From: Terriglobia bacterium
Lineage (GTDB): Bacteria > Acidobacteriota > Terriglobia > 20CM-2-55-15
Direction: 5' to 3'
NCBI GenBank assembly: GCA_963664115.2
Contig: CAXWPJ010000009.1
Location: forward strand, 768,001-832,000
Length of the DNA stretch: 64,000 nt
Under the pieces are notes generated by a model, which saw only the letters and a list, made by a program, of their open reading frames with translations, did not search any database and had not been told where the DNA came from. This document shows, one piece after another, positions 60,064 through 64,000 of this stretch. Both the position numbers and the translations under genes were made by a program. Position 1 is the stretch's first letter. Each line of letters opens with the position of its first letter.

Positions 60064-60414
60064 GTGGGACAACCTGAAATCGACAAGGAAGATCTGTTTA
60101 TCGAGGCCGTTGAAGCCTTTGGCGACAACAAGTTCGACGAGGCTATCGAACTCTACCAGAAAGCTTTAGCCATCGATCCAAACTACGCCGACGCTCTTCA
60201 CGGGCTGGCTCGAGCCCAATTCGACGGTGGAAAAGTAGACAACGCGATCACCACGGCGAAACGATTGACAGAAATTGACCCCGACGACCCTCTGGCCCAC
60301 ACCAGCCTGTCGATGTTTTACCAGTCGAAAGGCCTGATCGAAGACGCAGAACGCGAGGGCAACGTCGCGCGTGTACTCGGCTGGAAACAGGACCTCAAGA
60401 AGGGGAAGGAATAG
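60064..60414 (+). CDS. Small TPR protein
   Basis: AIELYQKALAIDPNYADALHGLA and DPDDPLAHTSLS TPRs; GAGGAGG SD. Confidence 0.9.
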   Translation: MGQPEIDKEDLFIEAVEAFGDNKFDEAIELYQKALAIDPNYADALHGLARAQFDGGKVDNAITTAKRLTEIDPDDPLAHTSLSMFYQSKGLIEDAEREGNVARVLGWKQDLKKGKE

Positions 60415-60514: not shown

Positions 60515-60544
60515 TTGACATTTAAAAGCAGCGCGGAATAGACT
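60515..60544 (+). promoter_or_regulatory. Putative sigma70 promoter of the cNMP-PilB gene
   Basis: TTGACA-N18-TAGACT ending 37 nt before the ATG at 60582. Confidence 0.6.
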
Positions 60545-60581: not shown

Positions 60582-62672
60582 ATGTCGACAACCGTAGCCG
60601 ATACCGATCAACTCATTGGTTTTCTAAAAAACGTCAGCCTTTTCGAGGATTTGCCCGAAGAAAGCCTGGTAAAACTCGGATCCTGCCTGAAAATCACGGA
60701 GTTTCCCCCGTCTGAAAGCGTCATGCGCGAAGGGGCGCCGGGCGTCTCGATGTATATCATCAAAGACGGCATGGTGGAGGTCCGGAAAAAGGACCCGGTT
60801 ACAGGCATCGATTTCCTCGTGGCGCAGTTGGGCCCGGGAGCGGCCGTTGGCGAAATGTCCCTGTTGACGGGTAAACCGCGCTCCGCGAGCGTAAACACGG
60901 TCGAACCGACCTCGGTCTACACGCTGACCCGCACAGATTTCCGCAATCTTCTCACGCAATACCCGGAAATCTCCCTGGGCCTGGCCAGAATTCTGGCAGA
61001 GCGACTCGAAGAAGCCAACAAGCAGGTCGGCGTCGAGTTCGTCAGCCTGACGAAAAACATCAACTTCGACCCCCGGGTCGTGAGCCTGATTCCTCAGAAC
61101 ATTCTCACCCAACATAAAGTGGTGCCGATCGCATACACGAACAACGCCCTCACCCTGGCGATGGTGAATCCGTCCAACCTTGTCGCCTTCGACGATGTCC
61201 GGCGCTACGTCAAGGGAGTCATCATCGAACCCCGCGTATGTACCGACGAGGAATTCAAAAAGTTCATGGCCCAGGAATATCCGAGGCTGATGAATGTCGA
61301 CGAGGAAATCGACAAGGATAAACAGGCAGAGAAACTCAAGAGAGACCTCGAAAGAAAGAAGAAGCAGCATAAGGAAGAAGCGGCAGCTGCGGTTTCCAGC
61401 ACGCAGCAAGAAAACCTGGAAGACCTTGAAGCCGAAATTCTGAGCGGCATCGAGGTCCAGGAGGACGAAGAAGAGAAGCCGTCGGAAACGGATCTCCAGA
61501 CCGCGTCGGGAGACGCGCCTATCGTCCGGCTGGCCAACAACATCCTGGCACTGGCGATCAAGAAGGGGGCCAGTGACATCCATCTCGAGCCTCAGGAAGA
61601 GGGCGTGCGGGTGCGCCTCCGAATAGACGGTGTCCTTCGAGTGGAAAATGTCCTATCGCGCAAGATCATGCTCCCGCTGATCTCACGCTTCAAGATCCTG
61701 TCACGCCTGGATATTTCCGAAAGGCGCCTTCCGCAGGACGGGCGTATTTCGATCAAGTTCGAGGGTCGCGGCATCGACTTCCGTGTATCCACGGTGCCCG
61801 CAAAATTCGGCGAGAAGGTCGTCATGCGGATTCTCGACAAGAGCGCGGCGCTCTTGCCGCTGGACAAGATCATCAACCATCAGGAAACGATGGAAAAGGT
61901 CCGGTGGATGATCAATCAGCCTTACGGCATCATCTACGTCACGGGACCGACCGGATCAGGAAAAACAACTTCGCTATACAGCTCGCTGGGCGAGATCAAC
62001 TCCCCGGGCACCAATATCTCGACGGCTGAGGATCCCATCGAGTATGACCTGGCGGGGGTCAACCAGATCCAGACCCACAAGGATATCGGCCTCGATTTTG
62101 CCCGGGTGCTTCGAGCCTTTCTTCGACAGGACCCCGATGTCATCCTCGTCGGCGAGACCCGCGATCGGGAAACAGCCGGGATCGCCGTTGAAGCTGCCCT
62201 TACAGGCCACCTTGTGTTCACAACTTTGCACACGAACGACGCCCCGGGGGCGTTCACCCGTCTTGAAGAAATGGGCGTCGAACCCTTCCTGATGTCGAGT
62301 TCGACCATCGGCATCCTCGCACAACGCCTGGCACGCCGTATCTGCACGAAATGCAAAGAAGAAGTCAAGCCGGACGAAGCGACCGCCAAGTTCTTCGGTT
62401 ACGACATGAACGACCTGCCGACGTTCTATAAGGGCAAAGGTTGCGACAACTGCGGTGGCAACGGGTACAAGGGGCGTGTCGGTGTCTACGAAGTCCTTCT
62501 CATGAACGACGAACTCCGGCGCTTGGTTTCAGGCGGAGCCAAGTCCGATGAAGTCCGGGATTGCGCCGTGAAGCACGGCATGATGACGCTTCAAAATTAT
62601 GCGGAGTTCCTCTTGAAAGAGGGACTGACGACGATGGAAGCGGTTCTTGGTGTCATTTCGATCGCAGAGTAA
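60582..62672 (+). CDS. Cyclic-nucleotide-binding domain fused to a PilB/GspE-family assembly ATPase
   Basis: N-terminal cNMP domain (REGAPGVSMYIIKDG, VGEMSLLTGKPRSASV); ASDIHLEP, ERRLPQDGRI, Walker A GPTGSGKTT, LRQDPDVILVGETRD, TGHLVFTTLHTN, CTKC/CDNC zinc motif. Confidence 0.93.
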   Translation: MSTTVADTDQLIGFLKNVSLFEDLPEESLVKLGSCLKITEFPPSESVMREGAPGVSMYIIKDGMVEVRKKDPVTGIDFLVAQLGPGAAVGEMSLLTGKPRSASVNTVEPTSVYTLTRTDFRNLLTQYPEISLGLARILAERLEEANKQVGVEFVSLTKNINFDPRVVSLIPQNILTQHKVVPIAYTNNALTLAMVNPSNLVAFDDVRRYVKGVIIEPRVCTDEEFKKFMAQEYPRLMNVDEEIDKDKQAEKLKRDLERKKKQHKEEAAAAVSSTQQENLEDLEAEILSGIEVQEDEEEKPSETDLQTASGDAPIVRLANNILALAIKKGASDIHLEPQEEGVRVRLRIDGVLRVENVLSRKIMLPLISRFKILSRLDISERRLPQDGRISIKFEGRGIDFRVSTVPAKFGEKVVMRILDKSAALLPLDKIINHQETMEKVRWMINQPYGIIYVTGPTGSGKTTSLYSSLGEINSPGTNISTAEDPIEYDLAGVNQIQTHKDIGLDFARVLRAFLRQDPDVILVGETRDRETAGIAVEAALTGHLVFTTLHTNDAPGAFTRLEEMGVEPFLMSSSTIGILAQRLARRICTKCKEEVKPDEATAKFFGYDMNDLPTFYKGKGCDNCGGNGYKGRVGVYEVLLMNDELRRLVSGGAKSDEVRDCAVKHGMMTLQNYAEFLLKEGLTTMEAVLGVISIAE

Positions 62673-62971: not shown

Positions 62972-64000
62972 TAGTGGTCCCCGTTAAACAGACTGTAACT
63001 TATCAAGATTTCGCCGGCCGCGCTGGACTTTAGCAAGGATGTCGGAAGCCGTTGCAGTCCAGATGAAGGGTTTCGGGTCTTCATTGTGACGAGCGAGGTA
63101 GTCCTCCACGGCCTGGATCAACTCGGGGACCGAGCGGAAAACGCCACGCCGGAGTCGTTGCTCGGACAGATCCCGGAAAAAGCGCTCGACCATGTTGAGC
63201 CACGACGCACTGGTTGGCGTGAAGTGCACATGAAAACGCTTGTTACGCTTGAGCCAGTTGACGACTTTCTGATGTTTGTGAGTCGCATAGTTGTCGCAAA
63301 TAATGTGGATCTCCTTATCTTTCGGCATGGCGCGTTTGATCTGATTCAGAAACCGGATCCATTCCTGATGGCGATGCTTTGGCATGCAGGTTCCGATGAC
63401 CGAACCGTCCAGGATGTTGAGCGCGGCGAAAAGCGTGGTTGTCCCGTTACGTTTGTAATCGTGGGTCATGGTGCCACACCGCCCCTTCTTCAGAGGTAAC
63501 CCGGGTTGCGTGCGGTCCAGGGCCTGCATCTGGCTCTTCTCATCGCAGGACAAGACAATGGCGTTTTCCGGTGGGCTCAGATACAGACCGACCACATCCT
63601 CCAGCTTTTCGGCGAATCGTTTGTCGTTGGATAGTTTGAAGGTTCGTGACAGATGAGGCTTCAGTCCATGGACCCGCCAGATTTTCCCGACCGTGGACTC
63701 GCTCACGCCAACGGCCTTCGCCATCGAGGCCCGACTCCAGTGCGTCGCGTTCGGGGGCTTCTCTTCCAGTGTCTTCTTGACGATCCGGGCTCGCTTCCGG
63801 CGACTGATCGTGGGAATCCGTCCGCTTCGCGGCGCATCCTTTTCGATCCCAGCCAAGCCCTGTTCCACAAAACGATTGCGCCAGCGGCCCGCTTTCTGGC
63901 GCGTGATCTCCAAGCGGGCGGCGATCTCATAATTGTTCCGACCTTCAGCGGCCAGTAATACAATTCGGGATCGTTCCGCCAACCGGACCGATGTACTCCG
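62972..64000 (-). mobile_element. IS630-family insertion sequence (right part; truncated by the window edge)
   Basis: Transposase stop lies about 10 nt from a (C)TAGTG end typical of TA-targeting IS630 elements; the other end is outside the window. Confidence 0.88.
62984..64000 (-). CDS. IS630-family transposase (5' end outside the window)
   Basis: HTH region (DAPRSGR, THWS), DDE residues in [25 protein letters not shown]. Confidence 0.95.

Follow-up and report, generated by a model that had tools for sequence, protein, structure and literature searches.

What does a pilus motor do when it carries, in the place of a cyclic di-GMP (c-di-GMP) sensor, a domain of the kind that binds cAMP, and is encoded with no pilus gene beside it? 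The question is raised by an open reading frame (ORF) at positions 60582–62672 of a 64,000-nucleotide stretch of DNA (hereafter, the window) from a Terriglobia bacterium of the phylum Acidobacteriota (GenBank assembly GCA_963664115.2, contig CAXWPJ010000009.1, positions 768,001 to 832,000). The ORF, which like all features described below, unless stated otherwise, lies on the plus strand, encodes a protein of 696 amino acids that we denote cNMP-PilB (cNMP, cyclic nucleotide monophosphate) and that was delineated from the ORF listing and matches to Pfam and NCBIfam profiles. Judging from its sequence, cNMP-PilB is a stand-alone ATPase of the PilB lineage in which a CRP-type cyclic-nucleotide-binding (CNB) domain stands in place of the c-di-GMP sensor.

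The Pfam matches along the protein are, in this order, cNMP_binding at residues 40–127 (E = 1.7e-18), MshEN (PF05157) at residues 162–233, where only profile positions 13–84, that is, the alpha/beta part, are covered, and T2SSE at residues 308–688 (E = 7e-125). In alignments to solved structures, the first 150 residues match CRP, PKG and PKA domains, and the match to PilB proteins begins at residue 145. The CNB domain, including the beta2-beta3 loop glycines G51 and G54, thus spans residues ~8–149 (60603–61028; Pfam, model and fold match) and is followed by the N1 alpha/beta subdomain (MshEN_C/N1E), the predicted stator-docking part, at residues 150–236 (61029–61289; Pfam and structure alignments), a charged, poorly ordered linker at residues 237–308 (61290–61505; model confidence and sequence divergence), and the PilB/GspE-family ATPase proper, N2D plus the C-terminal domain (CTD), at residues 309–690 (61506–62651; Pfam, structure alignment and Foldseek). 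A model of the full protein built from a 56-row alignment reached a mean predicted local distance difference test score (pLDDT) of 86 and a predicted template modelling score (pTM) of 0.57, with low confidence confined to the start and the linker (pLDDT below 50 at residues 241–245, 266–276 and 290–298); a single-sequence AlphaFold model (pLDDT 36) was set aside. Foldseek searches with the 56-row model gave Geobacter PilB and Thermus PilF as the top matches. The initial annotation of this locus had described the same succession, from a complete N-terminal cNMP-binding domain with an intact phosphate cassette through the alpha/beta subdomain and a charged linker to an intact ATPase, and the profiles, structure alignments and motif checks bear it out; only the extent of the CNB domain, given there as residues ~10–145, is refined, as the domain runs to ~149 and its C-helix merges into N1.

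The absence of the RLGxxL motif, also claimed in that annotation, holds as well: the motif was not found in the 696-residue protein, and a relaxed version of the 24-residue MshEN pattern that matches 6 of 8 non-family ATPases used as controls matches none of the 78 family rows, that is, the motif that in MshEN_N marks c-di-GMP receptors is missing from cNMP-PilB. The CNB C-helix (residues 128–149; 60963–61028; alignment and predicted interface) ends where the last MshEN_N helix ends in MshEN-containing PilB proteins and enters the same N1 strand; thus, the CNB domain replaced the c-di-GMP subdomain exactly, with the C-helix, the predicted dimer helix, taking the place of the last MshEN_N helix. 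According to the accessible text of PMC5013675, c-di-GMP binding sits in MshEN_N, and MshEN does not bind cAMP. The arrangement recurs: the survey of domain architectures suggested at the outset, run with residues 1–240 as the query, returned 743 proteins, and all 120 listed ones carry PF00027, PF05157 and PF00437, although many of the unlisted proteins may be plain CNB proteins.

The phosphate-binding cassette (residues 90–103; 60849–60890) was defined by conservation and by alignment with the MlotiK1 CNB domain and Thermus CRP; its residues 90–102 read GEMSLLTGKPRSA and display the pattern GE..L....R that is also found in these two proteins. Among the 78 aligned family members, G90, R100 and A102 occur in every one and E91 in 77, and the cassette is the most conserved part of the CNB domain (0.91, versus 0.80 for the whole domain). 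The beta2-beta3 loop residue G54, which by PKG alignments would correspond to PKA G169, is kept in 75 of the 78. In the accessible part of Kannan et al. 2007 (PMC2246266), cAMP-binding CNB domains are characterized by the GE..L....R motif together with a co-conserved beta2-beta3 glycine, and both are found here, the loop glycine being co-conserved with the cassette Arg. The CNB fold matches Thermus CRP (4ev0) with Z = 20.7 and a root-mean-square deviation of 1.6 over 133 residues; the best matches, CRP 4ev0, PycTIR, PKA and Clr, are tied (Z = 20.1–20.7). The C-helix bears a hydrophobic stripe (positions 134/138/142/145) and the invariant R141. The HTH_Crp domain that would mark a CRP transcription factor is not among the Pfam matches of cNMP-PilB.

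Which nucleotide, then, would the cassette bind? The host genome encodes six full class III cyclases and one cyclase fragment, along with eight GGDEF domains. All six cyclases have Lys (ATP-type) at the first specificity position; the second is Asp in three and Thr in three, the Lys/Thr pair being one that we take to be adenylyl-type as well. Adenylyl cyclases carry Lys/Asp and guanylyl cyclases Glu at these positions (PMC4215837, accessible text), and the Lys-type host cyclases narrow the reading of the ligand to cAMP over cGMP. The domain could instead recognize cGMP, a pyrimidine cyclic nucleotide or some other small molecule, given that position 101 is Ser/Thr in 71 of the 78 members, as in PKG alignments, that the fold scores of PycTIR-cUMP and of cGMP-bound domains are tied with that of CRP, and that GAF-HD-GYP genes adjoin the family gene in some loci (see below); however, with Lys rather than Glu in every host cyclase and the same cassette pattern in the MlotiK1 domain and Thermus CRP, we consider such a ligand quite unlikely. 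No CRP was found in the host genome; a host HTH_Crp match considered as a CRP candidate was rejected as an ArsR-type methyltransferase-like protein (a label from reading the sequence). Altogether, three host proteins contain cNMP domains, cNMP-PilB included; the other two (C9:211396–214062 and C2:120468–122738) resemble a Na+/H+ antiporter-CNB protein and a metallo-hydrolase-REC-CNB-GGDEF fusion, these labels coming partly from reading the sequences.

Structure prediction for two copies of residues 8–236, run on their own alignment with cAMP present but unscored, yielded a CRP-like homodimer with a score of 0.74, versus 0.00 for the best of three controls; the runs agree in at least 82% of the contacts, with pLDDT of at least 83. 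In the calibration set, which applies only roughly to this job, 20 of 30 true dimers attained the pass mark, as did 1 of 23 single chains. In the predicted interface, helix 131–149 is self-paired, the cassette faces the partner helix, and N1 residues 195–198 and 219–222 take part. The models support a CRP-like dimer of the sensor. Pairing through the C-helix would also be expected of a ligand-independent dimerization or spacing module with a cassette conserved for structural reasons, and a few distant members do lack the cassette Arg; against this stand the cassette's conservation above that of the rest of the domain and the cyclases in all carriers checked, and we regard a mere spacer as highly improbable.

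The ATPase module retains Walker A (residues 455–463; 61944–61970), the Asp box, Walker B with the catalytic E525 (residues 519–525; 62136–62156), the His box and the tetracysteine zinc motif C588/C591/C621/C624 (62343–62453), with K461, E525 and each of the four cysteines present in all 78 members. The tetracysteine motif is typical of extension ATPases, and both this motif and the N1 domain are absent in PilT. By these motifs, cNMP-PilB would qualify as a T2SSE-type extension ATPase; its score with the pilT_fam profile is 170 (cut-off 319), and that with the TfpB profile NF053534 is 430 (cut-off 850). The match to the NCBIfam pilB profile (TIGR02538) begins only at residue 145 because MshEN_N is missing. 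The gene does not belong to a gspE operon, the host GspE being encoded separately at C9:585380. In the ATPase-domain tree (30 rows, unrooted, 10 of 40 rows having been left out as long-branch or redundant; no donor is claimed), a clade with support of 100/99 unites 12 CNB forms, two cyanobacterial PilBs and the L163 PilB; a quick tree of 53 rows, with 8 short fragments skipped, served as a lead only. Grouping of the CNB forms with the host-type PilB was rejected (approximately unbiased test, p-AU = 0.001), and the test neither demonstrates nor rejects that the CNB forms all arose once (p-AU = 0.226). The ATPase domain is 57–61% identical to cyanobacterial PilB1 and L163-type PilB versus 44–54% to host-type PilB and myxobacterial paralogs; for N1, the identity is 51% to the PilB of locus L072/L163 versus 27% to the host MshEN-PilB; and the sequence GETRD after Walker B is common to the family, cyanobacterial PilB1 and L163-type PilB. 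These comparisons sharpen the assignment of the motor, which by lineage appears to be a type IVa PilB and not a GspE.

The intact ligand cassette and catalytic motifs are under purifying selection. The residues invariant among the 78 members, G90, R100, A102, K461, E525 and the four cysteines, belong to both modules, and in five pairs of sequences, the ratio of nonsynonymous to synonymous changes (pN/pS) is 0.08–0.14 for the CNB domain, 0.10–0.14 for N1, 0.05–0.19 for the ATPase and 0.18–0.37 for the linker, the highest of all regions. Carriers of the gene number 27 among 35 genomes from the host's order, 6 among 401 genomes in a sample of the phylum (judged by full-length matches), 17 among 121 genomes of the family f3 (including the unpublished G443), and 6 among 121 genomes of another order. 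Named records with the full architecture come from Terriglobia, Vicinamibacterales, Deltaproteobacteria, one Planctomycetota and one bacterium labelled Acidimicrobiia; a degenerate member from Riflebacteria (P0200) lacks the cassette Arg and, like P0186, has a degenerate ATPase. The Terriglobia locus L039 shares 87% identity and the gene order with the host locus. The host also retains a piece of a second family copy (C10:199487–199621): its 45 C-terminal residues, which are 62% identical, follow immediately upon an IS3-like element (a label from reading the sequence). In a Terriglobia subgroup (L043:4786–7197, L044, L045, L046, L048, L049, L058 and L061), an N-terminal double-CxxC zinc ribbon, matched as Pfam Zn_ribbon_4 in L043, precedes the CNB domain, and a BadF/BadG-family gene usually follows the family gene.

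A class III cyclase is present in every carrier checked. Within the host's order, all 27 carriers have cyclases, as do 6 of the 8 non-carriers; G423, with a broken family copy, has one weak cyclase match. In the genus g237, the sole carrier has two cyclases, and none of the four non-carriers has more than one weak match. In f3, where two unpublished genomes were left out of the count, 16 of 16 carriers have cyclases versus 27 of 103 non-carriers (naive p = 1e-8), with a mean number of 3.9 in carriers versus 0.4 in non-carriers (113 genomes in the RpoB tree). Carriage changes 10 times on this tree; a kinship test based on 3 well-supported independent pairs gave 2.1 in the same direction and 0.0 in the opposite one. 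In the third sample, from the other order, cyclases are found in 6 of 6 carriers versus 72 of 115 non-carriers (p = 0.09). The pattern fits a need for cAMP but falls short of proof.

Taken at the level of sequence, the reading that we favour, and hold to be reasonably probable, is that cNMP-PilB would act in trans as a cAMP-gated accessory motor driving extension in a type IVa pilus machine whose genes lie at other places in the genome. The initial annotation had proposed an alternative motor gated by cAMP or cGMP and serving a pilus or type II secretion system (T2SS) encoded elsewhere; this is partly supported, in that the checkable parts (conserved cassette, platforms and cyclases) stand, with the ligand narrowed to cAMP and the motor to the PilB lineage. 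The genome check suggested there turned up, in a host genome that is 97% complete, four PilC/GspF genes and the pilMNOPQ and pilT/pilU loci, besides the six class III cyclases; there are also six other full-length PilB/GspE ATPases. Three of the four platform loci have an adjacent ATPase of their own, and the fourth consists of pilC-pilS-pilR preceded by a deleted pilB remnant. Such a remnant of the canonical pilB lies before pilC in the host (G000; C2:473426–474070) and in G425 (C5), and in G426 (C41:1126k) the gene is absent from this position; all three genomes keep pilC-pilS-pilR. In G426, pilMNOPQ, pilT/U and pilC are intact with no pilB beside pilC, its six extension-type ATPases being assigned by position and length only. 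G433 retains PilM, PilT and PilC with neither cNMP-PilB nor the canonical pilB; thus, loss of the canonical pilB does not require cNMP-PilB. A stand-alone host MshEN-PilB, encoded at C6:159270, groups with the canonical acidobacterial PilB. On small contigs of G426, VirB11/TadA-like ATPases were matched more than 30 times with near-identical sequences, which points to a mobile element in many copies or to mixed binning.

Could the machine be T2SS-like instead, powered or tuned by a cAMP-binding protein? Besides the three further PilC/GspF loci of the host, this is suggested by the interruption of the type IVa genes pilM, pilT and pilU in the host assembly and in G425, where cNMP-PilB is intact, and by the equal scores with the NCBIfam gspE and pilB profiles. 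However, those three loci each come with an adjacent ATPase of their own, the motor falls in the lineage of cyanobacterial PilB1, and the two carriers without a PilM match keep a pilB-pilT-pilC-like cluster. Moreover, the host pilM lesion is a one-base frameshift in an A run (C2:1018.2–1019.2k; L297:925) that is absent from the contigs of three of four runs of the same species and present in one (X4 may be the source), so that it may be a strain lesion, phase variation or an assembly error. All in all, a T2SS-like role seems rather unlikely. The notion that the pilus system is dead in the host lineage was likewise considered and is weakened by the different positions of the lesions in G000 and G425 and by the lack of the pilM frameshift in three of the four runs; the pN/pS of 0.04–0.26 for pil genes compared with G426 also weighs against it.

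Another possibility is that cNMP-PilB is not a motor in its own right but a cAMP-dependent regulator that joins or competes with the MshEN-PilB hexamer and thereby primes or blocks extension, in a TfpB-like or dominant-negative manner. The gene is always an orphan, it coexists with a canonical MshEN-PilB in G000, G239, G391 and G404, and cooperation between PilB and TfpB is known (PMC11656802, accessible text). The CNB-N1 module also occurs without the ATPase, on kinase and cyclase proteins, and may be a portable cAMP-sensing docking unit. But all 78 members keep the catalytic residues, and in G426, with no pilB beside pilC, cNMP-PilB would be left as a candidate motor (G433, however, gets by without either gene), and a purely regulatory role appears unlikely to us. 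The ATPase-less modules lie at the C-terminus of Ser/Thr kinase proteins (P0161, P0272/P0179); in P0161, the kinase and the module share one protein with a class III cyclase at the N-terminus, and P0272 sits on a 6.3 Mb contig.

If cNMP-PilB is indeed a cAMP-gated accessory extension motor, the class III adenylate cyclases would supply the cAMP, which would bind to the cassette (E91, R100) and be capped, as in CRP, by the C-helix of the partner subunit. The paired C-helices would continue into N1, such that binding would shift the N1 domains pairwise on the long linker; should the dimer exist, each hexamer would have three pairs of sensors attached through flexible linkers. The shift of N1 could alter docking to the PilM/PilC base or nucleotide exchange, and not necessarily the rate of hydrolysis. 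In the accessible text of PMC11656802, N1 domains are thought to meet the stator, c-di-GMP leaves hydrolysis by C. perfringens PilB2 unchanged, and c-di-GMP changes the ADP affinity of Chloracidobacterium PilB; by analogy with the latter two proteins, cNMP-PilB may be affected in its docking or in nucleotide exchange. The result would be a cAMP input to piliation, in either the on or the off direction, alongside the c-di-GMP input of the host MshEN-PilB.

Several observations weigh against a cAMP-gated pilus motor. The scores with the NCBIfam profiles for both pilB (TIGR02538, 559.8) and gspE (TIGR02533, 562.3) fall below the respective cut-offs of 675.65 and 630.25. The predicted dimer might reflect memory of CRP, the job, with its own alignment and a ligand present, being outside the calibration. 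Neither a pilus gene nor a prepilin motif was detected in the 37 family loci (1.8–16.7 kb, many of them short), and in none of the 37 is the gene encoded with pilT or pilC, contrary to what would be expected of a type IVa PilB. The interruptions of pilM, pilT and pilU in the host assembly, noted above, belong here as well. After correction for kinship, the link with cyclases is not significant (p = 0.5), and in two of the three samples cyclases are also common among non-carriers; PilM, moreover, does not track the gene in f3 (14 of 16 carriers versus 68 of 103 non-carriers, p = 0.14). At least six relatives from the host's order (G412, G413, G418, G419, G423 and G424) have broken copies, and the divergent members P0200, P0247 and P0186 lost the cassette Arg or ATPase motifs.

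Within the window, the gene is flanked by genes for Tex, two MacB/FtsX permeases, a small TPR protein and a DDE_3 transposase, with no pil or gsp gene among these neighbours, as the initial annotation had stated. It had also been credited with a near-consensus promoter of its own, and a putative sigma-70-like promoter (TTGACA-18-TAGACT; 60515–60544) with 10 of 12 consensus matches indeed lies ~37 bases before the start codon; such a site alone is weak evidence (0.5 expected by shuffling), but the motif is kept at the same spacing in 8 of 19 relatives versus 1.06 expected. RNA runs gave short contigs only, a few of them near-identical and one starting upstream of the predicted promoter, with DNA carry-over possible. 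The upstream TPR gene (60064–60414) recurs in no more than 5 of 27 loci, all from close relatives of the host, and was therefore not counted as belonging to the system; the transposase gene lies downstream on the minus strand (62984–64000). In six Terriglobia loci (L002–L005, L041 and L042), a GAF-HD-GYP gene is divergent from the family gene, hinting at cross-talk between cAMP and c-di-GMP; in L042, a gene for a CHASE2 cyclase is located directly downstream of the family gene.

How does cNMP-PilB compare with known systems? The MshEN-gated ATPases (V. cholerae MshE, M. xanthus PilB, C. perfringens PilB2, T. thermophilus PilF and Chloracidobacterium PilB) have the same layout, with an N-terminal second-messenger sensor, N1, a linker and N2D-CTD, and the same sensor junction; unlike these, cNMP-PilB has a CRP-type CNB domain for the MshEN_N four-helix bundle (0 of 78) and was never seen in a pil operon (37 loci). 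The nearest motor lineage, comprising cyanobacterial PilB1 and the PilB of the L072/L163 pilB-pilT-pilC operon, has an N-terminus resembling MshEN_N and carries a cysteine tail at the C-terminus, whereas cNMP-PilB has the CNB domain and no tail. With CRP, Clr, Vfr and the MlotiK1 domain, it shares the fold, the cassette, the long C-helix and, by prediction, the CRP-like dimer, but it lacks the DNA-binding helix-turn-helix of CRP, Clr and Vfr, the output domain being an ATPase. A. baylyi TfpB is likewise a second, phylogenetically distinct extension ATPase beside PilB; cNMP-PilB differs from it in scoring 430 versus the NF053534 cut-off of 850, and no CNB domain is described for TfpB in the accessible text of PMC11656802. 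The CNB-AAA_Atpase group often has an ABC-like membrane region and a variable cassette Arg (PMC2246266, accessible text); cNMP-PilB shows no membrane domain match and the Arg is invariant, a comparison drawn from the description of the group.

A cNMP domain fused to a PilB/GspE-type ATPase is already in print as an architecture: the accessible portion of PMC5013675 lists, in Supplementary Table 4, MshEN-T2SSE-cNMPbind in Desulfobacterales (Desulfotalea psychrophila DP2226), with no reference or experiment listed. By the listed architecture, the DP2226 type has a C-terminal cNMP domain and keeps MshEN, whereas in cNMP-PilB the domain is N-terminal and replaces MshEN_N. As to the possibility raised at the outset that the architecture had already been characterized, the C-terminal form is listed in print; for the N-terminal replacement, no description was found in our literature searches, which did not cover subscription papers. 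In the accessible text of PMC11656802, cAMP controls pili by transcription, via CyaB-cAMP-Vfr, c-di-GMP acts via MshEN, and no CNB-bearing PilB is mentioned; the accessible text of PMC11139211 treats CRP as the main cAMP effector.

A bolder scenario, which we offer tentatively, is that an old PilB1-related motor lineage swapped its c-di-GMP sensor for a CRP head, such that cAMP would clamp neighbouring subunits into CRP-like pairs and license the hexamer at the pilus base; cNMP-PilB would then be a main cAMP output in CRP-less Acidobacteriota and the extension motor where the canonical pilB was lost, with transcription-free control of piliation by cAMP. A direct route of cAMP to the pilus motor would add to the transcriptional control of pili by cAMP and to the action of c-di-GMP at the motor. 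It would also offer a handle on how N1 talks to the ATPase ring and the stator, given how much more is understood of allostery in CNB domains than in MshEN. If the favoured reading of cNMP-PilB as a cAMP-gated accessory motor is true, piliation would be under direct control by cAMP at the motor, pointing to CRP-independent use of this messenger in Acidobacteriota, an abundant but little-studied phylum.

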